DNA from: Massalongia carnosa | Lineage: Eukaryota | DNA length: 64,000 nucleotides | Direction of reading: 5' to 3' | Assembly: GCA_965645245.1 (NCBI GenBank) | Contig: OZ287068.1 | Location: forward strand, 2,976,001 to 3,040,000 | Part shown: in pieces, positions 27,290 through 64,000 of the stretch | How positions within the stretch are numbered: position 1 is the first letter of the stretch | How the letters are laid out: each line of letters starts with the position of its first letter | Program-made: the position numbers and the translations under genes | Notes under the pieces: model-generated | Database searches by the model: none | What the model saw: only the letters and a program-made list of their open reading frames with translations | What the model was told of the DNA's origin: nothing

Positions 27290-28811
<1,522 letters not shown>

Positions 28812-30499: not shown

Positions 30500-30821
30500 C
30501 GTTTTTGGAAGTGAATGTACTTTAGCAAAACCAAACAGGTACAGTTTAGTAGGTAAAAACGTAGTTCTAGGCTGAATGCGACCTTATTCAGATATCATGG
30601 AGCTGGGCGGGACAATCTATGTTTGGCAGGGGGGTTTGCGGAAAGTTGTCATATATCTAATCTAGCCATACCAGCTGGCCTTTCATAGATATCGATAACC
30701 TCTTTCACCTATCACTCTCTCTGTTCCTACTTGTACCAGGCTCTTGTTCTTTCTCTCTATCATTCGTATTGCCATATAGCATTCTCTGAACACTAGCCTG
30801 TGGTTCTTTCGGGTTCTCAAG

Positions 30822-32130
30822 ATGGTAAGAGCATCCTTCACTAAACGCCGAGCATAACTAAACGCTTTCAGTTCACCCCTCAGTTTTACGAAGACGAAGA
30901 CCCGATGGGTGGCATATTTCCTCCGGGCATGATGCGAAGAATGGGCGCGGGAGTACCGCGCCGCTTTGACGAGTACTATCGATGCTATCCCGTAGTAATG
31001 ATGCCTGGTCCAGAGCGAGAAAGCATCAACCATGGGGGGAAGGTTATTTTACCGCCGAGTGCGCTGGACAAGTTGACCAGACTGCACATTACATACCCGA
31101 TGCTGTTTGAGTTGATCAACGGGTCCAAAGAGACGATGACGCACGCGGGCGTTTTGGAGTTTATTGCAGAGGAGGGCAAGATCTATTTGCCATTTTGGGT
31201 ACGTTGGAACCCGAGTGAAAGTTTCTAGAGCGTGCAGCCTAATCTTGATGGCAGATTATGCAAACTCTACATCTCGAACCTGGCGACCTGCTCCAAGTCA
31301 AATCTACAGACCTCCCATCCGGCCAATTCGTCAAATTACAAGCCCAATCTACCTCCTTCCTCGACATCTCCGACCCCAAAGCCGTGCTGGAAAACGCATT
31401 TCGAAACTTCTCCTGTTTGACCAAAGGTGATATATTCACCTTCGCCTACAATGACCAAACCTACGAAATGGCGGTGTTGGAAACCAAGCCCGAAACAGGC
31501 AAGAACGCCATCAGCGTGCTAGAAACGGATTTGGAAGTGGACTTTGCAGCCCCTCTCGGTTATGAAGAGCCAAAGAGACCCAGTGGTACGAGCACACCGC
31601 GAAGTGTAAACGGGGGTTTACCGGCCGGCGGCACAATACACAATACAGGTACCATGGCCCAAGCCATCAACTACGCCTCGATCGCCCCCAGTTCCAACAC
31701 AGCCGCCGCAGGCGCAAAGGCCGTGTCTTCGAATTTCCTTCTCGGCGGCCAGAAGCTCAACGCTAGGAAAGGCAGCCGTAATCCTACTCCAAAGGCTTCC
31801 ACCCCGGTCGCAGGAGCATCAACCAATAAACCCCTTCCCACAGTCCGACGCACCAACGGGCCGCAACCCCTTCGACTACCCCCGGGGAAACTCTTTTTCG
31901 GCTACGACATCAAGCCAGTTAAGAAAACCGAGCAGAAAGAAGTCGACGACACGAAGCCGAAGTTCCAGGGCCAGGGCCAGACGCTCCGCAGTGGCACCAA
32001 GCGTAAAGGCGGCGACTCAGACTCCGCGAGCGAGCCAATGGAGAAGGCCAAGGAGACGGAGAAGAAAGGTCCCACTGCCACCGGCTCGCGGCTTGGAGGC
32101 GGACGGACGCTGAGGGATACGCCTCGGTAG
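30822..32130 (+). CDS. UFD1: Ubiquitin fusion degradation protein 1
   Basis: FDEYYRCYP, GGKVILPPSALDKL, THAGVLEFIAEEG, DPKAVLENAFRNFS, DLEVDFAAP, FQGQGQTL (SHP box); first exon is ATG only (30822-30824). Confidence 0.96.
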
Positions 32131-32742: not shown

Positions 32743-33693
32743 TTACCCTTCTGTGGCCGTGTCCGTGTCCTCGTCTTCATCTTCGTCGTCCGCTTTCACT
32801 TTCACTTCCTCTCCCTCTTCCTCTTTCTTGACCTGCACCTTCTCCTCCTCCATCCCCTTCTCAAGCTTAACCCCCTTCACCTCCCCAGCCGCGCTTCCGC
32901 TCCTCTTCCGCCCCAGCGGCGCGTCCGCAATCGTTATGAACTCCCCCTTTACCGCGCTCTTGATCCGCCACCCCTTCATCGACGGTCCCATCCCGTTCGC
33001 GGTCTTGGCGGGTGTGGCTGAGGTGTTGGTAGTAGTAGGAGTGGTAGTGGTGATAAGGTCTACGATCGAGGATGGGGAGGGGGATGGCGATGGCGATGGG
33101 GCAGCTTTACCTACTGGAGCGGAGGTGGCCTTTTTGGTGGGGGCGGAGGATGGCTTTTTAGCGGTCGTGGCAGGGGCTTTTTTGTCGGTTTTAGTGGTTG
33201 GGAGGGAGGAGATGGTGATGGAGGAGGATTTTTTTTCGCGGCGGAGTTTGGCAATGCGCTCGATGATGGATTTGGAGGTTGCGCCTGTTTTTGGGGGGGG
33301 GTTGGGGAGGGAGTTAGGTGGGGATTGCAAAGGAGTCAGCGGTGACGGGAGGGATTTACGCACCTGGGAATAGAGTGGCGATGTGGTCGATCGGGATATC
33401 TTTTATGCTGGGAGCAATGAGTTGGAGGAGGAGCTGGAGATGTGGAAAAGGGGTTAGTGAGGGTTTTTGGAGGATACTGAAGGGCCTTGGAATGGCTTAC
33501 CTTACGGTCGTTCTCGGGTGTCCAGTTCTGTTGAGGGGGAGGGAGGGGGATTGTTAGCAAGGGTGAGCTGGTTTGAGGGGCGTGGAAAGAGGGAGCAGGA
33601 GATTGAGTGTTTGATAGGGCATTTTCAGTAGGCTTCTGCATAGGTTGTGGAAAGTGTGGTGATGTGGTATGATAGACTTACGACTTTGACCAT
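32743..33693 (-). CDS. Small Myb/SANT-like protein, cluster copy A (216 aa)
   Basis: Exons 33693-33682, 33527-33501, 33433-33364, 33284-32743 with canonical splice sites give MVKVNWTPENDRKLLLQLIAPSIKDIPIDHIATLFPGATSKSIIERIAKLRRE, then a K/T/P-rich linker and acidic tail. Confidence 0.85.
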
Positions 33694-34930
33694 TGTAGCG
33701 GTTGCTTTCGGAAACTAAAGCTTGGATATTCCGTTTTTTTGAAGAATGAGTCGAGCAAAACTGACTTCGGCAAATATTTTTGGAAATGAGTGCAGAAAGA
33801 TGGATGAGCTCACTGTGATGTTTCTTTCTGGCTGAGGGAGATGAGAATCTCTGAAGATCTTTGAAAGAATCTTGAGAATGATTTGATAATGAAAGATAGA
33901 TAGCTTTGATTCGTGCAAGATGCGAGGTTGGAAGAATGATTGCGTCGAGGTTTGGAAGGATTAATGTAAGATGTGGTAGATTTCGAGAAGATAAGTAGGA
34001 GTTTAGGGAGTTTGTGTTGAAGGGTATCTTGAATGTTGAAGAGTGTTTTTTATTTCGAAGGGCTGGGCGGGTGAGTTTGAGTGTTGTGACGTGATGGGGT
34101 GAGGTTTAATGAAAGCTGAAACGTCGCGACGAGGTATGGGGGAATGTTGAGTCTAGATTGAGTGCAAAAGTCTTTGCCTTGGGAGTGATGGGTTTGAGTT
34201 GTTGAGTATGAGATGGGATAAGTGAATGCGAACTCTGCCCGGGGCTATAAGATGCAAGTGGAGGCGGAACTTGAGACCTGGATTCCGGGAATTGAAAGAG
34301 GGCTGAAGAAGTAGATGTTGTGAGATTCGAGAGGGATAATATTGACGATTCCTGAGCGCTTGATAAAACATTTTGATATGTCTAACTATATCTTACTTGT
34401 TTGGGAATTTTTTTGGAGGACTTAGAGATAATCAGAAAGGGCAGCTTTACGTTGCAAGGCAATTAAATTGCTGAGGATATAGGAAAAAACTCCAGAGTTT
34501 GGGAAACGCTTGGATAAATTTGAGGCATGAAAATTGAGATCCTTGATTTCGGGGCGACCAAGCAAGACTCGAAATTGACACTAGTCGAAGAGGAATGTTT
34601 CTAATTTGTGGCAAGAATCTATAATCTTGCCTCGTAATAAGGGGCTGTTTGTACTCATGGGCTGAACCCAGCTGAAACTGTCTCTACGGACGATGCTCCA
34701 GGTTTCTTAATATTGGAAGGATTAGAGTTGTTGATGTGCTTTAGAGTACATCAGCCGATTTGCTCAGTTAAGATACCATAGAATCAGACGCACCTATTAC
34801 GAAATCTTCTGCTTAAAGAGAGTAGGTATATCTACTTTGGACCGCTGCTGCAAAACATAGCGAAATAGTTGATCTTCATGTTGCCTCAGGACCTCGGAAC
34901 GTAGTTGGCTACTGGGTTTGCTAGTTAAGT

Positions 34931-34997
34931 TAAGCCCCTTCGGGTTAGTCACATAAATGCTGTGAAGTCAGCTTAACTGTTAACCCGAAGGGGCTTA
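34931..34997. repeat. Perfect 17-bp inverted repeat with 33-bp spacer; candidate TA-flanked micro-MITE
   Basis: TAAGCCCCTTCGGGTTA (34931-34947) and TAACCCGAAGGGGCTTA (34981-34997). Confidence 0.75.
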
Positions 34998-36020
34998 GCC
35001 GTGCTCGTCTGAGATGGCACTTCTTTCGGCGTATGTCCTTGACATTGAAGATCTGATCTCATGGATTGTTTTAAAAACTTCTCAGTGTTTCTTAAGCAGG
35101 GCTGGCTTGGCTTTCAAATGCAAACTGAATATCCAATTGGTTTGCTCACTATAAGGACCACTGCCTTCCTTTCATATGGGTTCTAGTTTCTCTTTTCCGG
35201 TATTGTTGAAATTTACTGCATTTTACCACAGAAGCTACTATATCTTCAGAGTTTGATTCAAATCAGCATAATTCTCGAGACAGGTACTTTGAAGAATGTA
35301 AAAATTTCTCCTAGCCTTTGTTCAATTGCTTCAAGCAGCAAAATGTGCACCTCGACACCGTCTGGACCTTCGTTCCCGTTCGATTTGGAATTACAGTGTG
35401 CCTTGTTAAAACTCAGCCCATTGGGTTGACTTGAACATCTCGATTGGATACTCGGGCAAAGTTCATTGGCTGATGTGTTCCATCTTTTCGTGGAATCTTA
35501 AAAATCCAATGGACAGAGTATCCTCAGTGCACTTTCGTGGTACGCTTCAGTTGCAAAGGAAGCAAGGTTGGGAAATTAGCTTGGTCAAACCAGACCAACT
35601 CTGTCTAAAAGAATCAGCTACCTTTAGCGATCAGCTTTCAGGGAGTGCAAAGCTGAGCCGGTTTCTTTGAGCTAGCTATCATTCCCTTTAAGCCGCCACT
35701 TGTGTCTTCTTTGTTCGGGTAGTTGAGCCTTTGTTGGCTCTTCAATGACGGCATTACCGTCAATGGTTTCGTATTAGCTACAAAATCTCGTCTAAACAAA
35801 TATGTCTGATCAAGGTCATTGTTAGATGACTGTCAATCCCATTGTGCAATAAGAGACATGTCTTTAAACATCTTATATAAAATATGCTCCTGTACCTTAT
35901 GCTCGCTCATCAACTCACTCCTCCTCTCATCTGCTCAGAAAAGCTCAGTCAGATCGACAATCCTTCGGGATATCCGTCGCTGGCGAATACTCTTCAGCAT
36001 CAACTTTCTTAGTATAAAAC

Positions 36021-37316
36021 ATGTCGACTAACGCCCCATTTTATATATCCCTATATCCCGAAGATATTCTCCAAGACTCGCTGCATTCAATGTTAGCGAA
36101 GGAACTCGGCGAGGCGTTGATTGCACAGCTTTTGCCTCAATTCTCAGATGACACGGCGACGGATTTCACCGCTCTAGACGATTTGGAAGAGGGAGAAATT
36201 CTCGAAGATACATTACAACAGCGATTAGGCAAGGAGCCTTGGGACCTAGGGTCTACGCAGCTCCTATCTCCGACTCAGGATGACGCGGTAAAGGCAACGG
36301 AAGGCAAATATAGGATGCGGAGGTCCCGCTGGGACGAAAAGGATAACTATAAGCAGGTCGAATTCCTTGGAGAAGGCGGAGAAGGTACCTGCTTTCTTCT
36401 CCAAAAACGACAGAACAAGGAATTCGTTGTTTGCAAAGTTGCTCCTCTTCGCTATTCGAGTGACGATGGGAACCCCCGGGAGGTAGAAATACTTAGGGAC
36501 ATACTTCCTCCAAATGACCGAATCGTTCGGTTCCATGACGCCATCCTGTCAAGTTGGGGCTCGCAGATTTACTTTGACTATTATTCTGGAGGCGACCTAT
36601 CGGCTCTTATGTTCAACTACCACGCTCGTGATTACGATCTTCCCGAATCCTTCATCTGGCACACCGTCCTCCACCTTGCCGAAGCTTTGGCCTTTCTCCA
36701 CTACGGCTGCGACCGACACTCCGACCACGCAATCGTACCAAATTGGACACCGGTCGTTCATCGAGATATCAAGCCCGCCAATATCTTCCTTCGTCTCCCA
36801 TCGTTCGACGCTGAGAATATCCTTGGATACCCTTACCCCTCCATTGTGCTCGGTGACTTCGGCCTTGCGACGGTCGAGCCGTCCGACCAACCCGTCGGGA
36901 CGTTCGTTTGGCAACCACCAGAACTTCCCTATGCATCTTCGGAGGGGGACTGCTGGGCAGCTGGCGCCATTATTCACGCCATGAGTCTCCAAGGGGATCC
37001 GCCCATGGCACTTCTTCCACCACACTTGGCCGATACTCACGAAAATCGCGAATGGTGGTATTATCAAGAAGAGGCGAGGGAGGTTCGCTCTGTTTATCCA
37101 TACTCGCGCGAGCTAGACGAATGCATGAGCGGCGCGCTCATACACGATCCATCTGCACGCTTCACCGCTTTAGACCTTCTTGATCTAGCTATCATGCACC
37201 ACGAGGACACTGACCCTGAGAACAGAGACTGGGTACCACTAGAGCCCTGGGCCTTTGAGAAGTACAAGGGCGTTTGTAAGGCGCACCTTAAGACCCAATC
37301 TTCTGAAAGCTACTAA
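36021..37316 (+). CDS. Intronless Ser/Thr protein kinase, NEK/NIMA-like, 431 aa
   Basis: LGEGGEG, VVCK, EVEIL, YYSGGDL, LPESFIWH, VVHRDIKPANIFL, LGDFGLA, GTFVWQPPE, GDCWAAG; TATA-like TATATAAA at ~35875. Confidence 0.88.
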   Translation: MSTNAPFYISLYPEDILQDSLHSMLAKELGEALIAQLLPQFSDDTATDFTALDDLEEGEILEDTLQQRLGKEPWDLGSTQLLSPTQDDAVKATEGKYRMRRSRWDEKDNYKQVEFLGEGGEGTCFLLQKRQNKEFVVCKVAPLRYSSDDGNPREVEILRDILPPNDRIVRFHDAILSSWGSQIYFDYYSGGDLSALMFNYHARDYDLPESFIWHTVLHLAEALAFLHYGCDRHSDHAIVPNWTPVVHRDIKPANIFLRLPSFDAENILGYPYPSIVLGDFGLATVEPSDQPVGTFVWQPPELPYASSEGDCWAAGAIIHAMSLQGDPPMALLPPHLADTHENREWWYYQEEAREVRSVYPYSRELDECMSGALIHDPSARFTALDLLDLAIMHHEDTDPENRDWVPLEPWAFEKYKGVCKAHLKTQSSESY

Positions 37317-38629
37317 CCCCTTCTTCCTGACACTGGCTTTTGCAGAATATATTTTCAACCTCTCCGTTTTTTCTGAATATCCGCTCTTATGTACTACTAC
37401 ATTTTTTTTATCCCCAAGTTTATGTTATATGCGGGGTGGGGCTATTGTACTATTCATAGACTCGAAGCCCTTGAGAGGGGCCTCAGCCCCTTTTAGGTTG
37501 AAAAAGAAATAAAGGAATTAAAATCCAACCAAAGAACGCGGTACGGAGGCTTTAAAAAAAAAAACCACGACCTGGGGCCTTAACAGCTCCCTGGACTCGA
37601 CAGCTGTAGTTATATTCCCAAAAAAAAACCTATCGCATGCTCTGGATGCCGCTATCTTGGATCAGCAATACCTACTCTTCTGGGCCCCGTCAACCTTGCC
37701 ATGGACACAACTAAAGCTGTTAAGATCGTTTCAAGACGATTGGAATGATCGCTTGGCCAGCAAGAGATCACCTGTACGCGGTGCTGGCTACGAACCTTCT
37801 GTTGATCAGGAGAGCCAACGATCTCATCTGCTTCTACCAAATTATTACGATCTGCGACCCTGAACGTGACTATGCTATCGACGCGAACAAAGAGTCTCCT
37901 TTATTTCCTACCATACACATACCTACTGCTTTCGAGGGCTTCAAGCCCACAACCCCATCCGCCGATTCTATCGCAGGAGATACGCAGAATTCGGCAATGA
38001 ATGTGCCTGGTGCAAGAAGGACCGCGGCAGTATGCAGATCCAAACCAACAAGAAAAAGTCCAGCCCAAGATATTTTTCCTACGAAAGGTATTTCTCCGGC
38101 TTTTCAAGGGCCCTATTTGACAGTAGCATAGGCGAAGCAACTCCCAGGAAGACGGCATAGATTTTTAGAAACCCCGCAGGTCAATTCGAGAATCCTATCG
38201 CTCCCCCCCAAGGAATAGCCGTGCGGAAATCCCTCAAAGAGGACCTTGGGGAAACTCGACAGGAAACCAGCCAGTAAGAAATTACTTGTTCGTGGTGCTA
38301 AGAACCTTCTGTTTTGTCGGGAGAGCCAACGCTTTTAGCCCGCCCTCCCCCCCCTTTTCCCTTCCATACTTTGCGTTGTAGACAATATAGGTCGTGATAT
38401 TATAGCTGGGCCGGGGGGGGGAGTAGAAACGATTAGATGTTCAAACCTGTATAGCACTGAGATTTTAAACCCTGTATACATAGGTTGACCCTGCCAGACA
38501 CGGTGTGGAGGGGTGGAGTGGACCTCCACCAGATGGCCAGATGACAGGTGTGATGACTGTACGCGAGGGTCAGTGCTACCGAGCACCACTGCCGGAAGTC
38601 ACATGATCGCTCCCTGAGCCGTCAGTTAT

Positions 38630-40794
38630 CCCTCTCGCTGTCATTCTAGCACCCCCCCCCAAGCTAAACCATTGTTGGTTAGAAAGCGCTAAACCTTAAA
38701 CTTTTGACCAATCAATGTTATTCCTATTCACAAGAAGTTGTACGGAGTATCAGATACCTATTTACTCGTCCCCTATCATATGAATAGCTTCCCAACAGCT
38801 GGCTTTCTTACAGCAGGGCCTGATTGGATTACATCCTCCACAAGCCCATATAGTCTGAGCACCCCTTCGCCTTCTTTTACGCCCATCGACACTTATTTCA
38901 GCCAGTGGCTCTCCCTTCCGCTTTGAAGGTCGTTTTTTCTCGGCGTTACATTGCACACATCTTTTTCTGCCTTCAAGACGAACGTAATGATGAATGGGAG
39001 ATGGTACTAAAGCATCAATCGTGGTATTGATGCTTATCTTTGATGAGCCGGGCCTGATGCCCGCTTGATTTGATATCAGTTCAAGAGCAATCCGACGAAG
39101 AAATTCAGAACGAGTAAATTTTATCTCCTCGGAATCGAAAGAGTTCAGCGAGTAAAGTTTATAGGCATTCAATCCGGCTGCATCTAAAATAAAAATGAAC
39201 AAAGGCCACCAGTAACGATCCGTTCGACGATTGTATGAGTAAATCGCTCGTTGCTGAGCGTTTCCATCCGATCCCCCCATATGAAGATTATATTCTTTGA
39301 TTGGGGCTGGTATCGGTAATCCTAAGGGCCGTTGAACCTCTTGATTGAGCAAGGGAATGGAGTGAGCCAGAGTTGATGGGAAATACGATACAATAGGTTG
39401 AAGAGAGGTCTCGGGAATTCCATATCTCTTGTGCGGATTTATATAGTGCATTTCGTACAAGTCCTGAGGAGAATGACCGGTGGTCATGTACTGCACACCA
39501 TTATTATCCACCCAGCCCATACAAAGCACCTTATCGTCGACCACCATATGGGCCTGAAGACCCCAGTCTTTTCCTTTTGAAGTGACGTCCCGTATGGCCA
39601 ACAATTCTTCTGGAAAGCCCGAGCCCTTTTTAGCAGTTCCACTGGCAGCTATTCCGATTGATCGAAGTGCCTTGAATAATTTCGTACTAGTAAAGAAATT
39701 ATCACAGAAAAGATGATAATTCAGTGAGGATGGAAGTTCTTTACATAACCGAATCACTAGCAAAGCACTAGGAGTTAGTTTATCTTTTGGCAAAAATCCC
39801 AATTGTCTGACTGTTTTCAATTCACTTATTCTGCTACTCTTCGAGGCAAACATAAATGACAACAGATAATTATCCTGACAGAGACTGTAGATTTTAAATC
39901 CTTTATGGGCACTTTTTGTAGTAATCTGCAAGGTATGTCGAGAACGGCCCTTGAATAACACCAGCTGTTCATCTATAGATATCATACTTCCTGGTCTGCA
40001 ATGTTTCAATGAAGTCTTTCGGAAATCAGTAGCCAACGGTTCCAGTTTCTTCCACCAATCAGGTCCTTGACCAAGTCCGATAGGCTCAGTCTGTCCATTA
40101 TTGATTTTCAAAAATCGTTTGATTTGTTGAAATCGACCAAGCGACATCGCGGACAGAATAGGCATGATAACTGGTTTGTCAGGACGTTGATTCCAATAAT
40201 CCTCTGTAGCAGGTAGATGATCGAGTCCCATAAGAATTAATATGCCCAAAAAAACCTCAATTTCCGAGTCAGTAGTGTCAGTCCAAACCCGATGATTGTT
40301 CTCCTTCTCCTTTTCCATGTAGTTATTTGCCTTGATATTGGTATGATTTGCGATGATACGACAATGCTGCCTTGTTATAAATAACCGAAATAATCCCAAA
40401 GGATTTCGAGAATCGTTTTCAACGAGCGGAACAAAAGGCCTGTTTTCAACCCGAATGGGGGTATATTTTGAGGAATAGGGGGAAGGTCGATTAAAATATC
40501 CCGAACACTTCTTTTGCGATTTATTTTATGTTGCTTCGCTGAAATGGGAGATTTGTCTGATACACTCGGGATTTCTTCTTCATTGAGCGTCATACTTATA
40601 ATATCAATTCCGAAGCTAGAAGAATAGTAATTTATGTGATTTATTTTGATTGAATGACCGAATAGTATTCTTTGAAAAGTAAACAAACGCGCAAACACTC
40701 TAGAGAAAACTAATGTTCTGATGACTCATCGGTGCGGAAGCTAGTCCAATATAGATTAGCTTGGGGGGGGGGTGCTAGAATGACAGCGAGAGGG
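38630..40794 (-). mobile_element. piggyBac-like DNA transposon, 2165 bp
   Basis: TIRs CCCTCTCGCTGTCATTCTAGCA-C9/10-AAGCTAA at 38630-38667 and 40756-40794; transposase ORF inside. Confidence 0.93.
38762..40593 (-). pseudogene. piggyBac transposase with one apparent frameshift near 40470
   Basis: SIDEQLVLFKGRS, LFCDNFFTS and YNLHMGGSD give the DDD triad; MSLGRFQQIKRFL; C-terminal Cys-rich domain CVQC...CGGC..CC...C..H. The ATG at 40593 is in a different frame from the main ORF. Confidence 0.85.
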
Positions 40795-41434
40795 ATAGTC
40801 CCGCTCGCCCACTTCTTCTGTTCGGTTTATCTCTTCATCTCTTCATCTAGTCAGCTAGTCAGTGCGTACGTAGCAACATGACGACGACGACCTGATCATT
40901 CATTTCATTTCATATGATGGCCCAGTGACAGTACGATTGATTCATAGACGCACACCACCCAGTTTATCCTCCTTCAACGGCTACCAGGAGATTTCCAATC
41001 CCTCCTTTCCCTCCTTTCTCCCCTAAATAGAGGTAACTTCTTTTAATCTTTGCTCGGGGGGAGGAGGATTATGTTCAGCTTCATCCAGGGGAGGCTTGCA
41101 TTGCATAGTTGGTTATTTTTAGAGGGGGGAGGGGGGAGGGGACGCAGGGTGGACATGTATAAGAAGCCTTCCCCATCTCGTTCAATTCATTCATGATCGC
41201 ACCTCCCCACGGCAGGGAATGGAAAACCAAACCAGCATAAGCGCCACCTACTTTCCCCGACAGAACAACGATAGCTAACCTAACCAATGCTTCCCCTTTG
41301 TTTCCCCATATCCAGCGGAGAAATTGCACATTTCCACCATCATGTTTTTCTGCCCCTTTTCCAGAAATCGAAGCCCGAGACCGTGAAAATATAAGACCCT
41401 CGTCATGTTTCCCCCCATGGAAACAAGCCCAGGA

Positions 41435-42422
41435 TCAGATCTGTGCTCCCTCATACCTCAATCCCATTTCCATGTCGTCTTCGTGCTCGGCGAACCAAGC
41501 CTCGACCCCAACTCCCATGCCAGGAAGAACAAGCTCGCCCTCGTCCTCGGCGTCCCCGTTCGTAGCCCAGAACTCCTCATTCTCGCCAAGCTGCTCCTCC
41601 TTGACCATGCGGGCCTTCTTCGATGGGGCGCCGTTCTTGCCAACGCGCCCACCGAGCACCTTGGTGCCTGCTGCTGCTGCTGCTTCTCCATCTTCGGTCT
41701 TGACGACGGTGCTGGCAGTCTTCTTTTTGGGAGGCGCGCGGGGTTTGGATTTACGTGGGGTGGGAGAATTAGAAGCGAAGGAAGTATTAGCGGTGGCAGG
41801 AGTGCCACGGGAGGGTGCTCCTGGACGGGTTCCGGACTCAATTTCTTCGGTAAGAGTCTTTGCAAGGCGTTTTATGATCCGGAAACGGCCTTCAATGGAG
41901 TCGTAGGTCGCACCTGGGGGGATGGAGGGGTTGTAAGAGAAGAAGATGCTTGATAGAGAGGAGGAGAAGAAGAAGAAGAAGAAGAAGAAGGGAAGTCTAA
42001 GGGAAAGAATGAAGAATAATATTATACCTTGGCCGAAGTAGCTGGCTATCTTCCGGTAATCAAGCTGATAGAAGAGGAATGTTAGCCAATTCATTACAAG
42101 AGTGATCGTAAATAGAAAACAACGAGAACTAGATGACGGTATCGGGTAAGGAATCATGAAAATAAAGGGATTTTGCACAAGAGAAGATGGAAGAGAGGTA
42201 GTAGAAATATGAGTAAGTGAGCAGGTAATACGACACTGAAGATTTTGATACCCACAGGTGCGGAAGCACGAATGCGTTTCATAGGTAATAGTAACTTCGA
42301 TAGACTTGAACCCACGAGCGCCGGGTGTATTCTAGGTAAATCCATACCTTCATATCCTGGGCGGCAACCATTGATGCCAAAAGGCGCTCAAATGTATCGA
42401 CGGATTTCCAGTCAATCGGCAT
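41435..42422 (-). CDS. Small Myb/SANT-like protein, cluster copy B (196 aa)
   Basis: Exons 42422-42348, 42064-42028, 41913-41435 give MPIDWKSVDTFERLLASMVAAQDMKLDYRKIASYFGQGATYDSIEGRFRIIKRLA, then a basic linker and acidic tail. Confidence 0.88.
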
Positions 42423-44225
42423 CTTGAGAAACTGTGGATGTAAATTCTGGTGGTCTATTGGAGATTTTGAGAGAATGAAGCTTAAGAAAAGTATATGTAT
42501 GAGGTGGTGGAGGGTGAGGTTCAACGAGTTGCGTGATGTGATGGGTTGAAATGTAAGGAATAAGAGGGGAGAACTGAGGTGTAAAATCTAGAGTCTGTGA
42601 TGTGAGCGTTGAGAAGAGAATGATTCGAGTTGAAAAGCGATGATCTTGAGAGTCCGTAGAAGGAAACAGGTTCCTGTATGCTAGTTTCTTCCGGCGCTTG
42701 AACTCTGAATCCGCTGAACGAAAACAGAGATCGTTGGCAAGTTCAAACTTGATCTTAGAACGAACAAACAAGGCTCATCAATTTGTAAAAAGACCTATTA
42801 AAGGGCTTCAAGAAATAGAACAGGATTTCAATGATCAAAGCAAGTTCAAATCGATATTCAACGTCGAGAAGCCCCCGATTCAAATACGCAGGTATACAGA
42901 TTGTCGTTCTTGGCATCACAAATCCCCTCAACGGTCCGGCCTTACCTTTCCTATATCTTTCCCACTCTCAAGTCCTTCCTTGGCTCCACAATCACACACC
43001 GCTCCCCGTCTCCACCTCCACGCAGCCGCACAGTCTCAACCAGCTAGAAACTCTGACTCACGTCCCTCACGCTTCACCCCCCTGCTATGCAAGATACTCG
43101 CAGAAGAGACGCCAGGGTACCGCAGGAGATTGTATCACATTTCTCAGGCTCTCATGTCGTCCCTTCCGATTCCCCGGAAGCACAAAATTCGGAATCTTCA
43201 GTTCTAGAAAGCGTGCTTTAGAGGATGAAAGGTTAGTTAGAGTGCCTGCAGAAGTAGCGTTACGCCTGGGGCTACGTGTCTGCGGCGCTAACGGCGGTAC
43301 AGTATCCGCCGTCCGAGCGTTACTTCTTTTGGAAGAGACTTCATGCAGGGTATAAGCCAGGGACAGGGATACGCGTGTTGGCGAGAACGCGCTGGGGAAC
43401 GAAGATGCATGCTCTTTGCAGACATGGTAGTATTTACAGAGTACTCGTTGCAGCCGGCAAAGCGTCAAGAATCCACCCGGCATACAAAGTACTCCGTACG
43501 ACATCATGTAATTAAATCTACTGCGTAACTTGCGCAAAGACCTATTCAGATCTCTCACGCGTTGAGAAGCTACCTCAACCTTCGCTGACAGGTAGAACAT
43601 ATATGTCTACCGTGTACTCGATCGATCGCGTTGGAGGCACGCGTTGGAGGCACGCGTCGTGGCGTGCACCACACGCTGTTTCTTTGAGACTGAAGACAAA
43701 AATCATCAGGCCGTTGCTGCACGCACTATAGATAAGGATGCATAGGCATTCATTCGTTCCTGTATCGATACGTACTCTAACTAACGTTACTCTTCAACAC
43801 AACGGAATGCACGTGTGATACCCATGGATTCAGTCATGGCGGGATTTGGCCGGCCAACGGCGTGTCATCGTAAGGGAAATTCCTTGGAACTGGGAAGCTA
43901 CAGATCCGGGGTTTAAAGGGCAGGGTTTACCGCTGTGACATGGAAAGTGAATGGAGCAAGGATCATGTCAATGATGTGATGCTTTAAGGCGTAGAGAATA
44001 ACGTTCATGACTGGAAGTAATCAGAAATGGTGGATGAACATGCTGGATGAGCTAAAGATTTGCCGACTTTGCCTCTTTAATTTAAACACGCTGGCTTTCT
44101 CAAGAATCCGAACCTCCTCTCCTGTCCCCAGAACCGTCATGTATTCTCCGACGATGATCGTGTTGTAGTCAAAAAAGAGAGTTCAAATCAGACGCTAATC
44201 AGTACGATTAAGGCCCCTGGTATCT

Positions 44226-44915
44226 CTAGATTTCCATCTCGGTCTTGATCAGGTTGAGATCAAACTCCTTGTCGCTGGCAGCACTATCTTCACTCTCGGT
44301 TTTCACGTTCCTAAACAAATTCTCTCCGTTCGAGTTATTGCCATCTTCCATGGACGGGAAAGGGTCTCCAAGCGCCTTGTAGTCCTTTTTGGAGGCCTTG
44401 CGGGGAGAAACAAGAGACTTCGTGTTTGCTGCCTTCATCGCCTTTTTGCTTGGGGCTAACGTGCCTACTTCTTCAAAGCTGTCATCACCAGCACTAGCGA
44501 TTGAAGGTGGAGTTGCCACGATGACCTTAGATTCCTCCTCCTCATCGCTCAAGACTTCCTCCATAATTTTCTTGGCTACTTTGGCCTTCTTTGAAGGCGC
44601 GGGGTTAGCTGGAGCGCGCGCGCGTTTGGTAGCGCTAGCGGGTTTAGCTAGAGGGGTCACTCCAAGCTCGTTGGCCTTCTTGCGAAGAACTTTCATCCGT
44701 GTTTGAATGCATGATCCCGGAATGTCGGGACCTATGAAAATTAGTCAGCTGAAGTCAAAATTTACCTATTAGGTTTTTGATGGCGAATAACGCTCACCAA
44801 AAGCTGCTGCTACGCTGTTGTAGTCTACCTGGATTCCTTGGACGGCCAGAACTGTCAGGAACAGTTTGGCATCGTTTTCGGGCGTCCAGTTAATCGCAGC
44901 TTGTCCTTTAGGCAT
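44226..44915 (-). CDS. Small Myb/SANT-like protein, cluster copy C (207 aa)
   Basis: Exons 44915-44798 and 44731-44226 give MPKGQAAINWTPENDAKLFLTVLAVQGIQVDYNSVAAAFGPDIPGSCIQTRMKVLRKKA, then a K-rich and acidic tail. Confidence 0.88.
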
Positions 44916-46911
44916 CTTACCTGTTGAATCGCAACTTGATTAGTTTGGAGACTAGGGATAATCTGTAGTATTGGAATTGAGGTGGAACAATTTTAACGAA
45001 TCCTCGGGTGAGAAGTCAAAACTCAATGTAGTGAGTAGAGGAGTGGATAGAGTAGGAACTGAAGCTAGGTAGAAATGAAAATGTTGAATTGTGTTTAGGT
45101 TTCAAAGACCCTCTGACTCTTAAGGACACAAGATAGACTCACTTGAATTGTTCGATATTTGAGGGTCTTCGCAAACTTTCTTTGAAGGAGAAGCAAGAGT
45201 AGTTAAGCTGATGCTAGCTTTGAGGATATGATAAATTAAGAACCGTGAAGAAAATGAGTGGTGATAGGTTTAGTTACAGGACTTCAAGTTAAGAGGGATT
45301 GAGTATAGGTAAAGCAAGCTAAGTATAATAGTGTTGAAATATAAGGTCGCTCGAAAATTCTTCGATTAGTTCTCAGGACCTCGGAATCCGCTGGGCAAAA
45401 ACTTCTAACGATATTTTTCTAATCACGCCCGCATCTGAGATGACCCACTTTCTATCGCAACTTTTGAATTTATGAAGCAGATACCTAAAAGATAGGATGT
45501 AGCATGACATTCTAGTTTGGAGGACTTGAGTAAAATTTCGCCTGATAGTATTGTCTGGAGAGAGTAGATGTCCCAAACATAGCTCGTTACTTGCCGCGAG
45601 GTCCGTAAGAAAGCCCAACAATGGAATCTTAGCTAACTCCAAAACAGACAGTTTTATGACTATCGTGTGTACAGAAACTTGAGCAAGCAAAGATTATAGA
45701 ATAGAAGTTGACAACAACAAGAACAGCAAATCATACCTAAGAACAATGAACCCCGGCAAACATCGTTGGCCTTGGTCACATCAGCCATGCCAGAGTAAAG
45801 ATTACCACACAGACCCTTAGAGTGGTAGAGAACATCCTAGCTTGTTGAAAACGCCCATTCTTCGCCTTCGCTCTCAGTCCCTATGAAAAATCATTTGGAA
45901 CGCCCGGGCGGGGGTTTTACAAATGGCATAGAAGCTACCAGCGCACCGCTGCAATGATCTAGTCATCCTGCAGCCGCTTTTCAGGGATCCTTTTATGGGA
46001 GAGGTTTATGACGCAGGATGTGAACCTTCGTTACAGAGTACAGAGTACTGAACACAGAGCACGGAGAGGTGTGAAGGAAGCAGTTGAAGTCAAAGCAAAC
46101 TTTACAGTCTAACGTAACTGATCGGAAGGACGGAGTCTTGCTCCGTGCAGAGGGACGGAGCGGAGGAATGCTGATCCATTTGCCGATCAATTGCCGATCA
46201 CGAGATCAGGCGGCAGTAGCGTAGTTAGCGAGGGAAGCGTAACTACTCTGCACAGAGTTCGTGGCTATCAACAACACCTACTGGCTTGAAAGCCAAATCG
46301 CCTGCGTTCATAAGAAATGGCATGGCCAGCACGAGAACATTATCTGCAGAAGATATCACATAACATGACAGTACCTGCAGATATAACCTTGTTGCCTCGT
46401 CATATGCGTGTTCTAGGTTCTCCTGGTTCAGGCATCCTTGACCTGATCGTTCCTCATGCAAGAAAATCAAGCCTTTCATGACTATGATATTTGCCCAGTA
46501 GAATCCCAGACATAGCCATACCTCAAAGCACTTGACCGGTTCTCGAGTTATCTGGAGTTCCACGATACAGAACAGAGAACGCTTCTGTTTAGCCTCTATC
46601 TGCAGTCTTCTTGCTTCAACTCTCTTGCCTTCAGTTTGTCATCGAACATAACCCATTTTCTTTCCTACAATTGTCACGGGGAGTTCTTCTCATCTAGCTT
46701 ACAAGCGTTTTTCAATCCGAAACTAGAAATGCACGCGTAGACTTTTAGTTCTCGGCGTCACTGTCAAATCTCCCTTATTCTCTGACCCACTACTTGGTTT
46801 CTGCTCGTGTACAATCGTTCTTAACGCAAGAACCTTACTTGCTTCTTGCTTCGGCCTCAACTCTATCAATTACGTGCTCGCATTACACCCATTTCTTCAT
46901 CAATAAACAAA

Positions 46912-47833
46912 ATGACCATCAAATGGACACCAGAAATCGATCAGACTGTAAAAATACCCTCTACATTCTATATTCCGCCCTTTTATCTTTCTTAGTTTCA
47001 AGTCTAATCGTGCTCTAGCTCCTCCTAAAGATCCTTGAAACCTCCAGCGTGAGCGTGAACGCTAAGGCTATCTCTGAAGCATGGCGTACGTTATTCCTTG
47101 TTAACTCCCTTCCCATCAAATCCTAGCACATAATCTAAAGAAACACACCTAAAACATACCAAACTTCCTTCATCTCTAACACTGACATAACACAGCCAAG
47201 GACCAAGAAATCCCAACCCCGCGCGCCATCTCCGAGCGCCTCGTTCGCATCCGCGCTATGGCCAAATCCTCGGGCGACAGCTCAAATTTTAGTGTGCCTA
47301 ACGGGAAGAACTCTGCTAAGTCGACGCCGACAAAGGCATCAACGCCTCGCCATCCTACGCCAAAGAAGGCTAGAAGCGGAGTGAAGAAGGCTGGGGCGGG
47401 AAAACGTGGACATAAGGCAATGGAAGGGTATGTCATTATATTACGTATCCACCTTTTCCCTTCACTATTATATTCTCAAGTTACTTATTTCCACGCTCTC
47501 CCTCTCCTTGCCACTCGCCGTCTACACTTTCACTTGTAGTTCCCTTGAAACTAAAAGCCCATCCCCCTCTTTCCCTCTAGTTCCGACTCCGAAGCCGAGC
47601 TCTCCAAAACCGGCGCCCCACCTTCCTCCAACCCCCTGGCCAACGAGGACTCTGAAGCCTCGGAACCCGCCACTCCTGCAAAGAAGAAGCAGAAGCCCGC
47701 AGCAGCGGCAGCAGCCAAATCCTTGAAGCCCGTGACTATCGTCAAACCAGAGCGTCTTGATGATGACGTTGTGGAAGCTGCACACGAGGACGGCGGATTC
47801 GAGGATGAGGATATGATTATGGGACAGATCTAG
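46912..47833 (+). CDS. Small Myb/SANT-like protein, cluster copy D (195 aa)
   Basis: Exons 46912-46947, 47019-47085, 47196-47427, 47581-47833 give MTIKWTPEIDQTLLLKILETSSVSVNAKAISEAWPKDQEIPTPRAISERLVRIRAMA, then a TP/K-rich linker and acidic tail. Confidence 0.88.
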
Positions 47834-48438
47834 TCAGGTTGGAGTGCGCAGATGGATGCTGCGGTTATTGTAAGTTAGTCAAGTTAGTCAGATACACCAA
47901 CTTCAGCTACAGCTTTATGTTAGGAGCAGTCGTTGGTACAGTTTCTCAATGCCAGAAAACAAAAGTCGAGGAGCAAAGTTCTCAACATTAACCATCTGCC
48001 TCCGTATCGAGATAGCTAACGTAAACTCCCAAACCCCTCGTCTCGTTTTCATTCCCAACCTTTTTTAGAAATACCTTTCCCCCCTAATATTCTACTTTTA
48101 TTGGCCCTGGTGCGAGGAGACGCTATAAGTAGGATGGGCAGGCAAGTAAGTAGTAGGCAAGTAGATACCTCCGCCAGTAGAATAACTAAAAAATACAAAT
48201 AACCCACGGCATTGTCATAGCTACCTCTTCTTCAAAGACCAGCCTAGTCCAATTCATTCCTACTAAATACATCCCATCAGTTTACCTACCCATTCACCCA
48301 TCTATGTATATTTTCTATCTAGTTATCCAGCCCTAATGATTTCCAGTTACAGTCTTATCGATTCATCAAAAATGATGAAAAGGTGGCTTTGATTACGGTT
48401 AGGGTGGGAGGTGATGGGTCTGGGTTGCGGTTGCAGTT

Positions 48439-48491
48439 GTAGGAGTAGGAGTAGGAGTAGGAGTAGGAGTAGGAGTAGGAGTAGGAGTAGG
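48439..48491. repeat. (GTAGGA)n hexamer microsatellite, ~9 copies
   Basis: Read directly. Confidence 0.9.
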
Positions 48492-50151
48492 CGTGGGAGT
48501 TGGGGGTGAGTGTGGGAGAACTGGGTATTTTGGCTAGATTACATACAAAATCCACAATAGACACCCATATCCCACCCGACTTTTCCACCATTTCCATCTT
48601 CCTTGGTTTGCCCCTCCCCTCTCCCTTTTCTCGATTCGTATATGATCTTTCTCCTAAAACCACATCACAGCGTATATGGCTCGGTTCGTTTCAATTTTGA
48701 GCGAGAGAGCGTGGAGGAGAGCTGCAAGAGGACGAAAGGGGGTATTTTAATATACAAAGGAGGTGAGAATGTGGTATACCTCTGTCAGAGAGATTCATCA
48801 CTTTTTGTGGGGGGGGATTGTCGAATAGTAGAGGGAGGGAACTCAGAAGATAGAGGATGCAGACAAGAGAACAAGACGATATAGCAGTTCTGAAATATTT
48901 ACTTACCTATCTACTTATCTGGCTGCCCTTCTCGTGGCTCTTTTTTCGACCAAAGAAAAAAGAGTTTTTTTTTTCCACAAAAAAGAATAGAACAGAACAG
49001 AGCCAAATAGCACAGAACCCCACCCGACAGATAATTGTGAAGAGCATGTAGATACCGATACCATGCCATGGAGTCCCTGGGGACGGGCCGGGAAGAGCTG
49101 AAGTGGGCTACATACAGGTAGCTTTTTACTTTATCGATGGGTAGGTGGGTAAAGAGATAGGTAAGAGTAGGAGATGGTTAAGGGATTTCTTCGGATGGGT
49201 GAGAGGATATGTCATGTTCAGAGAATGAGTAAAGAAATGATCAACCGACGGACTGAAAACCTAGGAATGTGCGTTTGCGAATGTGGTGGTGGGTGGGCAT
49301 GACGAGAAAAGTGTCGTTTTTTATACTTTTCAACTTTCTCGCACTCAATCGACCGGTTTTTCCGTTGGTTTCCTCTCACATCCCTAGATATCCTAATCCT
49401 TTCCTTCAAGCCACCCTTTGATTATATACTTTTTTGTTCTCTTCCCCCTTTTCAAAATTGACGCTTAATAGATGCGAAGGCAATGAATTAAGGGAGGGAA
49501 GGGAGGAGGCAGAGAGAGGCAGCGAGGGAAGAGAATCGAAGAAGGGAGAACAGAATAGAATGAATGAGTAGATTTTTCTAGTGGTGTTCTACTATGGCAG
49601 TTGATGGGGGGGGTGAGCTTTGGGTGTCGTGCGGCTTAGAACACGAGACTTAAAAACTTGAATCTGCAACTTGGGGTAAATAGTTGAGAGTTTAATGGTA
49701 ACTACTCTCACTTGTATATACCAGTTCCTATTTCGCCATACTTGCGTATGTGCGGATTTGGGTGTTAGGGACTAGGTAGGTGGCTGGGCTGACTGGCTGA
49801 GGCGATCGGTTGGGAAATTGGGGGAAGAAAGAGAATGGATGAATAAGACCGAAGATGGGATGGATGAGAGGATGGAGGATGGTTGGATGGGAATGAGATA
49901 TGAAAAATCCAAACTTCGCAATCAGCCAGGTGGATTGAGAGATCAAAAGCCCACACCTGCGCAATAAAGTAGCTAGCATGCACAACTACCATCACATAAC
50001 TGAGAAATTTCTCATCCAACTACCTATCAACTTATCCACTTCTCAGCACGACCGGAAACAGGTCCATCCATCCACAAAAATAATTCCCCGAGAAAAAGCT
50101 TTCGCAACTAGAGGATCCGTCACTAACTGCTAGTGTTGGATAACCGACAGC

Positions 50152-51117
50152 TTACTCACTCCCATCTTCATCCTTGACGATATCTTCCTTATTTCCCTCA
50201 GTATCTTGCTCATCCCCAGTATCTTTCTTCTCAACACCAAATTTGATCTTCTTCGTGACCTTAGAGTCTACGTCTGCCACCTTTACTTCCTCGTCATCAT
50301 TGTCCTGAAGAGCCACGGCAGCAGCAGCACGCTTCTTCTTTCCGCTGCCTTTCCAGGAAGCAGCAGCAGCAGCAGCGGGGGCGCGACTGGCTGTGGTCTT
50401 TGAATCTTTGGGCTTGATAGAGAAAGCGGGGATAGCGGAGGTTTTTCCGTTTGAACGGATCTTAGAGATACGATGTGTAATAGCTTTAGGGGTAAGGCCT
50501 GTTAGAAAAGAGGGGTTAGTTAAGGGTTTCTTAGAAGAAAGGGACAAGGAGAGTGGTGGAGATAAGTGTCAAGGAAGAGATGAGCGGATGGCAGGAGAAG
50601 GGAGAAGGTATAGAAGGAGTAAAAAGGAGACCAAAACGGTAATGAATGCAATGAAAAATTAAAGATGCGGGCAAATGATCACAAGGGTGGAGCGCTAGAG
50701 CAGTGGAAAGCAAGAGATAGAAAGGCTTAAGGGAGAAGCATAGAATTTAACAAAGACGCAAAGTGTTGTGAACCGATGAACTGAACGAATGAGAAGTCAC
50801 ATCTCCTCAAGATAATGATAGTCGTGTGGATGTAACTCAAGTTAAAGTGCTTCACTTCAGTAAGTACTAACCACGTCCCATGGCCTTAGCCAACGTCTCG
50901 TAGTTGATTTTGAAGGCGTGGAAAGCGAGGACATGCTTGAAAAGCTGTTTTCATCCAAATTATCAAATACTTCTGATAGAGAGATCGATTGAGGAAGTAG
51001 ATGAGTCTTGAATGAGCACTATCTTATAGAAAGATCCTTTTTGAAGGCGAGGGAAAGGCAAGAGAGAATGTAGGAAGGAAAAATTACCAGAAGATCATCC
51101 TATGATGCCCAGTCCAT
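50152..51117 (-). pseudogene. Small Myb/SANT-like gene, cluster copy E (149 codons) with in-frame TAG at codon 6
   Basis: Exons 51117-51088, 50944-50872, 50498-50152 give MDWAS*DDLLLFKHVLAFHAFKINYETLAKAMGRGLTPKAITHRISKIRSNG; stop at 51100-51102; the rest of the frame is intact. Confidence 0.75.
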
Positions 51118-52478
51118 CTCGATAACGTTGCTCAGGTTTGGATGGTGAAATGGATTTGGCAATGAAATTTGAGCAAAGAATAATGGATAAGCTATCTTAA
51201 GGGTCGATTAGAGAAGCCTCAAAGCTAAGCTTAGTAGATGTTTGTGTTGATGGAGTAGAAGATGGAAAGACGAAAGAGCTAATGGAAGGGGACTTGGGGT
51301 TAAAATAGCCTCGAGTTTTCTAGATTCTAGACTTAGCCCTAAGGGTGAAGAATAGAGTGAAGATTTGGGACCGAACCCCCCCTCCCCCCAATGTATTCTC
51401 CAGCTTAGTATAACTATTGAGGAATGATGCTATTCGGGTATAAGAGCAGCATAATCTGCTAAGTTCTCTGTTTCCAACAAAAAGCAAATAATTACGAGCG
51501 AAAGCTGGTGTATTTGTGCCCTAAGCTGACAAGAACGACGAGTGATATCTGGACCGTTGCCTCTGAAAAGGGCCGCCCAATGCGATCTGAAGATACGAAC
51601 TAGCCAAGAAGACGTCGAAGGTAAGTGTAACCCCAAAAGGATAAAAGCAAATAGTTCTCCTATCAAAATGAAATCTCATAAAAAAGCCCAGGACCAATCT
51701 CTCCTCTTGGTGCTTAGTTTTAGTTTGGCGACCTCATAATGTTTCTATGAAGAAAGCCATAGACGTCCCATAGACTTGAGTAGGTTGTGACCATCCCACA
51801 GAAACTGATTCGTGGGTCGAGCGCTTGAATAATCCACCCATTAACGAGGCTCCATTCAGCATGGGAACTTTGTAATGTCTTTAAATATATTCCGCGATTT
51901 CAAGTCATTCGGTACCGTCTAGCTCCTCCACCACGCTTCGCATATCCCTGGGTTCCAATCTTCTTCTCGGGACCGGAGAGCACGACACCTTTCTCCTTTT
52001 GTTATTGGTAGGCAGAAACATGCAGAACCCGGTTTGCGTTATGATTGAGAGGTTCCACCAAGATGTATTGTGTATAATGGAAGATGAGGCTTTTTGTACG
52101 GCGCCACGGGATTATAGCATTGGAACCCGTCTGCATGGTTCCCTTCCATGCAGAGAACAAAGGATCGAATGGTTTGCCTTTGAATGCATACCCGAAGGCA
52201 TTTGAAAGCAGCCTAGCAGAAATTGAAAACTTACAAACCATCGGTAAGATAGACATCGATACAATGAAGTTTGTTGCTGTTGCTTACCTATTTATATACC
52301 TCAATCCCTTTTTTTACTCCTCCAAAAACTCAATAGAACACAGCTGTATGAGACGGAGCAGAGACTGTGATTGTACAGCTTGTCAATGAACTAGCAGAAT
52401 ATTCCCAATCACTACTGCTGTATAGCCTTCCCTTCTCTCTATCTATCGTCAAAGTTACAATAAGAAATACCACAAAGG

Positions 52479-53130
52479 ATGGCGAGTCTTCGAAGGAGCA
52501 AGAATATGGCCACGGATGGTGCTACTCCCAAGTTCCTCTATACTATTTTGAAGCAGTTGGATCTCAAATCTGTAGGCTCTCCCCCCCCGGAACCTGGCCG
52601 AGCGTTCTACTGATGACTTTGAATAGATTGACTGGAACCACGTTGCCAGCAATTTGGACATCACTAACGGCCATGCCGCACGGATGCGCTTCTCTCGTTT
52701 CAAGCAGCAGATGGAAGGTATACCACCAGCTCCTCGCAAACCCAGGTCTACTGTCCCACGCCAGAAAAAACCTAAGCGTGAGAAACCGAAGTCCAAGAAG
52801 GAGGAAGCCTTGCAAGAGGAAACTTTCAAGGAGGACGAACTCAAGGAGGAAGCCAATATTTTCGTTAAGCCAGAACCAAGGGATGATATGCAGCCAGTAT
52901 TTGAGGAGCCCATACTCCATCCTGCGGCCTTGATCAAGGAGGAGCTCGTCGACGAAAGTTACGGAGACGACGGCGCAGGTATGGAGTGGCTGCCTTTGGA
53001 ACCGCACGAACATCCCCAGCAAGATTTCTTCGAGCCCTATCAACACGCTGAGACTCGGTATCCTTCTCATGAGTTCATGCAAGTCAAGGAGGAACCAAGG
53101 GTGAAGATGGAGCCGGTTTGGACCAGTTGA
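52479..53130 (+). CDS. Small Myb-like protein, cluster copy F (198 aa)
   Basis: Exons 52479-52571 and 52627-53130 give MASLRRSKNMATDGATPKFLYTILKQLDLKSIDWNHVASNLDITNGHAARMRFSRFKQQMEG, then a K/P-rich linker and a tail with repeated VKxE motifs. Confidence 0.88.
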
Positions 53131-60160: not shown

Positions 60161-60380
60161 ATGATCAGTTCTTGCTCGAAGTACTACGCATGTGATCAGC
60201 TCTCAATCGAAGGAATATGCATAAATGATTAGTTCTTAAGAAAAGAGATACAGATGATCTCGATGGAAGGACAAATCATCAGCTTTCGATCGAAGAAACC
60301 CGTGTGAATGATCAGCCAATAAAAAAAATTACATATGAGTGATCAGATTCAAATAGAGTAAGCTTACATAAAAGGTCAGT
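60161..60380. repeat. Degenerate tandem array, period mostly ~29-33 bp, core RTGATCAG
   Basis: Units begin near 60161, 60192, 60225, 60254, 60275, 60308 and 60339; several also carry TCGAAG. Confidence 0.55.
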
Positions 60381-63880: not shown

Positions 63881-64000
63881 TACATTCGAAGATAACACAA
63901 GCATAATAAACCTATTGTATTCGTGGTTTAACAAAACATCGGACTTCAGAAACGTAACTTGAATTTTTTCCTGAGGAATTTTCAGTTTCGAACATTGGAG

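Follow-up and report, generated by a model that had tools for sequence, protein, structure and literature searches.

A loose array of five diverged Myb/SANT-like paralogues and a PF22980 member, with one probable pseudogene, in Massalongia carnosa

Among the described systems, those closest to the genes considered here are the single-repeat Myb, GARP and trihelix proteins (RAD, ARR1, LUX, PHR1/PHR2, GT-1), built on a three-helix fold with a long third helix, and the Pfam family PF22980 (Myb_DNA-bind_8), an uncharacterised and mainly ascomycete family. The MADF and GeBP-like families of animals and plants also comprise small proteins with a single N-terminal trihelical domain that starts with a tryptophan (Trp), followed by a charged disordered remainder, and at the level of the locus a comparison is offered by the tandem arrays of diverged transcription-factor paralogues. 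Here we report on a stretch of 64,000 nucleotides of Massalongia carnosa (assembly GCA_965645245.1, contig OZ287068.1, positions 2,976,001 to 3,040,000), from here on called the window, in which a first reading of the letters alone, the original prediction, had placed six small genes (A to F), each with a highly diverged Myb/SANT-like domain, directly downstream of UFD1. Our analysis makes it fairly probable that A–E together with F are a loose array of small nuclear Myb-type DNA- or chromatin-binding factors, in which A–E are five diverged paralogues and F is a member of PF22980.

The six genes were rebuilt from the genomic sequence and spliced by coordinates in a script (Table 1). They kept the outer coordinates first proposed for them and spliced to 216, 196, 207, 195, 149 and 198 amino acids for A to F, respectively, as in the predicted range of 149 to 216. 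Every predicted intron (14 by our count) starts with GT and ends with AG, and a CTAAC- or CTGAC-like branch site is visible in most of them; the last intron of gene D (47428-47580) sits in the tail and is without homology support. The divergent helix 1 described for B and the missing first Trp of F were both found again in the rebuilt models. Six-frame scans with a hidden Markov model (HMM) and with tblastn identified no further copies in the 64-kb window.

The relationship among the copies was measured with a family HMM of 65 positions, built on the first 68 residues of 31 full-length database relatives and containing no window sequence. The model scored C at 87.8 bits, E at 56.4 bits (with an X at its stop codon), B at 48.5, D at 40.4 and A at 37.6 bits, with alignments that cross the predicted exon junctions, whereas gene F did not exceed 7.6 bits (E 0.0016, with six sequences in the database). 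When the six proteins were compared pairwise by BLAST, matches were significant for A-C, A-D, B-C, C-D, C-E and D-E and weak for C-F (30.8 bits); the other pairs involving F gave no significant match. Judged from these scores, the domains of A–E are true homologues, five paralogues of one family, and not chance motifs. The single family of six originally proposed is thus reduced to five members, as F belongs to PF22980 instead.

Relatives of A–E occur well outside the window. A search with exon 1 of gene C, the most conservative copy, retrieved seven proteins of lichen fungi at 63-83% identity, including the full-length Pseudevernia consocians protein P0004, hereafter the C-type relative. P0004, in turn, matched 69 clusters at E ≤ 1e-3 and 14 at E ≤ 1e-10 among 1.84 billion representatives, and the named taxa of the family are Parmeliaceae, Geoglossomycetes, Thelocarpon, Peltula, Candelina and Aspergillus. 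Exon 2 of C, which encodes the tail, matched only one 99% identical open reading frame (ORF) on a Logan contig and nothing beyond the same species, suggesting that the tails evolve too fast for tracing orthologues.

Every member of the family alignments has the first Trp (26/26 and 30/30), as do A–E, and the start of their helix 1, 'W-T-x-E-x-D..L', resembles the Myb repeat consensus. Of the W-x-x-E-x-D start originally described, with F already named as lacking the Trp, the Trp stood for A–E; gene E carries a stop codon at the 'E' of the motif. The three regularly spaced Trp or aromatic residues that form the core of a classical Myb repeat were not recovered: only the first Trp is kept by A–E, an aromatic residue (Tyr or Trp) fills the second position only in B, C, E and F, and an aliphatic one fills the third. 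Among 26 family members, none matched the classical Myb repeat PF00249 at E ≤ 1. Weak matches to MADF (PF10545; 2/26, best E 0.027) and to GeBP-like (PF04504; 1/26, E 0.13) were seen in the same set; these lie far below the cut-offs, and no BESS-type motif was seen.

For gene F the assignment is more direct. Exon 2 alone matches PF22980 at 43.1 bits (E 2.5e-11, positions 20-49 of the 50 of the profile), above the gathering cut-off of 27 bits, and exon 1 adds a weak match to positions 3-17 (E 0.074), so that on profile evidence F is a clear member of this 'Myb-like DNA-binding domain' family. Single exons of A–E gave no PF22980 match. Full-length relatives of A–E behave differently: 8 of the 26 match PF22980 at E ≤ 1 (best 6.1e-6), always colinearly over positions 2-49, and P0004 reaches 17.2 bits. 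In the ESM Atlas, the Letharia member P0007 lies near Ascomycota clusters in which 40-60% of the members carry PF22980 (scores 0.88-0.90), an observation we treat as a lead. Precomputed Pfam domains were absent from all 34 hits of the family profile search. We therefore take A–E to be a sub-threshold sister group of PF22980, unannotated by Pfam, which shares the small-protein architecture with PF22980 and differs from it by the invariant Trp in a helix 1 of 'W-T-x-E-N-D' type that F lacks.

The link between F and A–E consists of the weak colinear PF22980 matches, the C-F BLAST score and an intron position in common with B. A profile-profile comparison of the family profile A1 with F exon 2, which holds 30 residues of the domain, aligned tail residues only (probability 7.9%). 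F is, at best, a distant relative of A–E.

We modelled the fold on two database relatives rather than on the spliced proteins of the window: P0004 for the C-type and P0094, an Aspergillus unguis protein which groups with B, for the B-type. The AlphaFold2 model of P0004, computed with an alignment of 26 sequences, has residues 1-65 at a predicted local distance difference test (pLDDT) score of 85-96, with helices at 12-25, 32-38 and 45-61 and the rest disordered; the AlphaFold model of P0094 has helices at 7-22, 30-37 and 43-61 at pLDDT 89-96. Both models show a three-helix bundle with helices 2 and 3 arranged as a helix-turn-helix, and the common fold expected for the copies is in this way predicted for two of the lineages.

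The best Protein Data Bank (PDB) match of the P0094 model is the MYB domain of Antirrhinum RAD (2cjj; Z 8.2, root-mean-square deviation 2.2 A, 59/63 residues), followed, with Z values in brackets, by ARR1 (7.6), SNAPc (7.5), LUX (7.3) and PHR2 (7.3), and further by GT-1 (7.2), an RSC module (7.2), Reb1 (7.0), Cdc5 (6.6) and many SANT entries. Among its best 50 rows, 11 titles name MYB, Myb or SANT, and other entries of the list presumably bring the Myb/SANT-type to more than half in all. Foldseek also ranked the ARR1 DNA-binding domain first for P0094 (probability 0.96, E 0.3). Together with PF22980, the only Pfam model that the family approaches, these two models and the RAD match support the Myb/SANT-like three-helix domain that had been proposed; the comparison with solved structures is mixed, as the P0004 model gave no clear match of this kind, and the assignment appears well supported, and not proven for every lineage. 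The likeness to the Myb/GARP/trihelix proteins is one of fold and of the long third helix; no significant sequence similarity to solved structures accompanies it.

Outside the N-terminal domain, which measures about 55-60 amino acids, the six proteins share a common plan. The domain has a net charge of +2 to +5 in 6/6 proteins, the following 40-70 residues are rich in Lys and Arg, and the C-terminal part is acidic, in agreement with the basic linker and acidic tail already described for them. All six tails contain between one and six psi-K-x-E motifs, which resemble the SUMO consensus and may serve as a lead. The C-type orthologues compared (P0004, P0075-P0077, P0016, P0017 and P0055) end in 'IK[ST]EE'-like residues and have the motif 'KVLTGRVTK' in common, whose counterpart in the window is 'KVLGGRVGK' in the linker of gene B, again noted as a lead. 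These tail and linker motifs may be conserved short linear motifs.

In the mechanism that we propose, the Myb-type domain would contact DNA through its long basic third helix, which has a conserved I..R..KLR-like pattern, or the same helix would alternatively bind nucleosomes. The Lys/Arg-rich linker could act as a nuclear-localisation or non-specific DNA-contact segment, and the acidic tail with its psi-K-x-E motifs as an activation, histone-contact or SUMO-regulated segment. Helix 3 varies from copy to copy, and each paralogue would accordingly have targets of its own; that the copies are co-regulated or form complexes, as in the combinatorial or heteromeric action first suggested, would be conceivable.

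Domains of the SANT type have histones or partner proteins, not DNA, as their ligands. Binding to DNA is therefore not assured for a domain of this kind, and the six proteins could instead be SANT-like modules for protein or histone interaction, that is, small adaptor subunits of chromatin complexes and not sequence-specific DNA binders. Many of the top-50 rows of P0094 are indeed SANT domains of chromatin complexes (CoREST, MTA1 ELM2-SANT, DMAP1, DNAJC2 SANT), among which we also count, as our own assumption, the RSC and SWI/SNF modules; the acidic tails with psi-K-x-E motifs would suit chromatin adaptors, as would the weak MADF matches of two family members. Canonical SANT domains, however, are acidic, whereas the domains described here are net basic with a third helix rich in Lys and Arg, and the top-ranked matches of P0094 are the DNA-binding Myb/GARP domains of RAD, ARR1, LUX, PHR2, GT-1 and Reb1. 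On this balance we consider the adaptor explanation fairly unlikely.

The age of the copies was examined in a maximum-likelihood (ML) tree of the domain (38 rows, 68 columns), in which many forks lack resolution and from which F was left out. Proteins of Peltula, Geoglossum, Trichoglossum, Thelocarpon and Candelina share a clade with E (support 98/94), the partners of B are P0071 and the Aspergillus unguis protein (92/94), and C is placed among the C-type proteins; the branches of A and D are long and could not be placed. Proteins of other fungal classes are therefore closer to E than are its neighbours in the window, and the same applies less firmly to B, which makes the copies old: as read from the tree, the split between E and C is older than the divergence of several Pezizomycotina classes, and that between B and C probably is likewise. 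The view that the copies are too diverged for recent duplicates accordingly held for E and fairly for B; cross-species orthologous clades, of which the original prediction had suggested a search, were recovered for E, B and C and not for A and D.

The introns bear on how the copies arose. Genes A, D and E share the column of a phase-0 intron that follows Trp+7; another phase-0 intron lies just ahead of the helix 2 motif [LI]-D-[YW], in the same column, in B and F; and a phase-1 intron in the loop between helices 2 and 3 is found in A–E, its column being identical in A, B and E and displaced by two columns towards the N-terminus in C and D. The shared positions point to a duplication of genomic DNA and not to retrocopies, and an origin of the copies by DNA-level duplication is supported by them.

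One copy is interrupted, which the original prediction had missed. The TAG in codon 6 of gene E occupies a position at which the relatives carry E, Q, K or R; the Geoglossum protein has Q there, and an origin from CAG by a single C-to-T change is plausible. Contigs spanning 48515-53130 from three DNA runs (X1-X3), possibly the assembly's own source data, showed no differing base at this codon. Three ways of rescuing the frame were considered and discarded: no GT donor lies ahead of the TAG for an alternative splice, the next in-frame Met would remove helices 1 and 2, and a reading of TAG as a sense codon is at odds with genes C and D, which end in TAG. The terminal branch of E in the ML tree is 1.4, as against 0.14-0.29 for its clade mates. 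Gene E is probably a recent pseudogene.

Several results weigh against the reading of these genes as nuclear Myb-type factors. One of the five A–E copies, E, is broken, and the branches of A, B and D reach 1.9-2.4 changes per site; taken together, the long branches and the broken E would fit relaxed constraint as well as specialisation. None of the 26 full-length relatives of A–E reaches the PF22980 cut-off (best 25.9, 24.5 and 21.9 bits). No structure came out as a significant neighbour of the P0004 model (Foldseek E > 1, VIA-align Z ≤ 3.6), whose top chains were generic helix-turn-helix domains (DeoR, sigma region 4) and homeodomains, so that the structural Myb assignment comes from one of the two models, and the Z values of up to about 8 obtained with the other may, by the tool's own warning, reflect common helical arrangements. 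By sequence, P0004 had no match in the PDB and the family profile A1 only low-complexity ones (E ~0.7). In the parts of the literature accessible to our searches, no experimental or expression work on any family member was found in print, no paper naming PF22980 or Myb_DNA-bind_8 was retrieved, and broader searches, which included lichens, Myb proteins and tandem copies, returned nothing on the A–E family. The statement that no functional description is known agrees with these searches, within the same limits, with the correction that Pfam already has an entry for the domain type as such.

The original prediction had further described the cluster as old and maintained, the second of which is supported only in part: A–D and F have open frames, and one indirect hint of linkage comes from a second fungus. 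The Letharia columbiana protein HO173_003275 (P0084, 322 amino acids) matches the helix 3 region of B with its residues 76-125 (38.9 bits) and the whole domain of C with residues 228-290 (63.2 bits), and is evidently a merged model of part of a B-like gene and a complete C-like gene; B-like and C-like genes would therefore be adjacent and on one strand in Letharia columbiana. The order differs, being B then C in Letharia and, along the minus strand of the window, C then B. No relative turned up in metagenomes scanned with P0004 or the E-type alignment A3. The premature stop and the long branch of E go against maintenance.

The same features raise a reading in which the copies have no joint function and are the by-product of an old tandem duplication in a gene-poor, transposon-invaded region, where they drift and E is the first visible casualty. 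The nonsense codon and long branch of E fit it, as do the very long branches of A, B and D, the intact multi-copy piggyBac-type element and the kinase gene within the array, the region beyond 53 kb, with a GC content of 0.42-0.43 and no ORF of at least 110 amino acids with a Pfam match, and the C tail, for which homologues were detected in the same species only. Drift thus gains credibility from the interruption of E and from the long branches. We nevertheless judge it unlikely, given that A–D and F have kept open frames, canonical splice sites and the core residues of the domain, that the E-type and C-type lineages persist in several fungal classes, and that the merged model points to adjacent B-like and C-like genes in Letharia columbiana.

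The opposite possibility is an ancient linkage group, in which at least the B-, C- and E-type lineages, each with orthologues in further Pezizomycotina classes, would have arisen by tandem duplication, would have been adjacent since before the classes diverged and would be co-regulated or act together as small Myb-type regulators; we hold this to be distinctly unlikely. If true, filamentous ascomycetes would have a conserved cluster of regulators that had escaped notice, of which the Letharia pair would be a second glimpse. With known tandem arrays of diverged transcription-factor paralogues the locus shares several old paralogues of a single type within 20 kb and shared intron positions, and differs from them in its broken copy and in the unrelated genes and transposon between copies.

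Myb/SANT-like accessory proteins of transposons are known and a piggyBac-type element lies between A and B, and the genes might on these grounds derive from or belong to a mobile element, for instance as such an accessory protein, the cluster being an insertion. We consider this very improbable. No terminal inverted or direct repeats surround the six genes, the only long inverted repeat being that of the piggyBac-type element itself; their read depth equals that of the single-copy flanks, whereas the transposon is 40-180x deeper than its flanks in 4/4 DNA runs; they have spliceosomal introns at shared positions, and their relatives are small stand-alone genes in many fungi. A role of the six genes as transposon cargo was rejected on the missing flanking repeats and the single-copy depth. 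That the six models are artefacts of splicing by eye in a non-coding region, as junctions predicted from DNA alone and tails of little or no homology might suggest, has a negligible probability and was rejected, since family HMM scores of 37.6-87.8 bits extend over the predicted junctions, F exceeds the Pfam cut-off and the architecture recurs in annotated relatives from other genomes.

The array spans 20.4 kb and is loose, with the kinase gene and the piggyBac-type transposon both between A and B (Table 1). Its closest protein matches are from lichen-forming and other Pezizomycotina fungi.

Table 1. Array genes and neighbouring features (positions in the window)
Feature	Position	Strand	Exons or details
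Gene A	32743-33693	-	216 amino acids; exons 33693-33682, 33527-33501, 33433-33364, 33284-32743; Myb-like domain at about residues 1-57, basic linker, acidic tail
Gene B	41435-42422	-	196 amino acids; exons 42422-42348, 42064-42028, 41913-41435; divergent helix 1; linker motif 'KVLGGRVGK'
Gene C	44226-44915	-	207 amino acids; exons 44915-44798, 44731-44226; most conservative family copy
Gene D	46912-47833	+	195 amino acids; exons 46912-46947, 47019-47085, 47196-47427, 47581-47833
Gene E	50152-51117	-	149 codons; exons 51117-51088, 50944-50872, 50498-50152; probable pseudogene
In-frame TAG, codon 6 of gene E	51100-51102	-	at the 'E' position of W-x-x-E-x-D
Gene F	52479-53130	+	198 amino acids; exons 52479-52571, 52627-53130; PF22980 domain, basic linker, acidic tail; no first Trp
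RVB2 (TIP49)	27352-28808	+	upstream of the array
GYF-domain gene	29030-30583	-	upstream of the array
UFD1	30845-32127	+	directly upstream, on the gene A side of the array
Protein-kinase ORF	36018-37313	+	intronless, 432 amino acids; Pkinase, E 1.7e-24; between A and B
Intact piggyBac-type transposon	38627-40797		34-nt perfect terminal inverted repeats; between A and B
DDE_Tnp_1_7 transposase ORF	38765-40525	-	open, 587 amino acids; E 5e-53; inside the piggyBac-type element

Contigs of 4/4 DNA runs join position 38627 to 40795, bypassing the piggyBac-type element; this joint may stem from an allele that lacks the element or from the junction at a different locus, and the flanks of the element show no clean TTAA duplication. 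Within the six genes the contigs of these runs have no splice joints, which, for DNA data, has no bearing on expression. A short repeated element at 34977-35013 (bin 34530-35194) has a depth of about 6-9x that of its flanks, with loose contig ends in runs X1-X3. Between D and E, a hexanucleotide microsatellite of GTAGGA-type units (48410-48514), one frame of which reads as Thr-Pro repeats, is a point where contigs break.

Directly upstream of the array, a Pfam scan of ORFs found RVB2 (TIP49), a GYF-domain gene and UFD1, consistent with the neighbours RVB2, LIN1 and UFD1 that had been named. The left half of the window is dense in housekeeping genes (V-type ATPase, COX4, a ClpX-like AAA protein, a glycogen-branching-type amylase, GAPDH and a histone deacetylase). 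It also contains an ORF of 979 amino acids (21061-23997, minus strand) without a Pfam match at E ≤ 0.001 and, just upstream of RVB2, a DDE_3 (Tc1/mariner-type) transposase fragment (25843-26325, plus strand, E 1.9e-8). On the other side, the array adjoins a gene-poor stretch, 53200-64000, where the GC content goes down to 0.42-0.43 and none of the seven ORFs of at least 110 amino acids tested matches Pfam.

At present, what has been obtained is an annotation result with good support and not a new mechanism. What is new is a Pfam-unannotated sister family of PF22980 and its array of five lineages, the domain type itself being already in Pfam; with 69 representative clusters retrieved from one query, the family is widespread in filamentous ascomycetes. 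If its members are DNA-binding regulators, they would be fungal transcription or chromatin factors of a class so far left out of the count, and their specificities could be conveniently compared at the locus of Massalongia carnosa, where five old lineages are neighbours. Should conservation of the linkage be borne out, fungi would offer here an uncommon example of regulators that stay clustered over long times.

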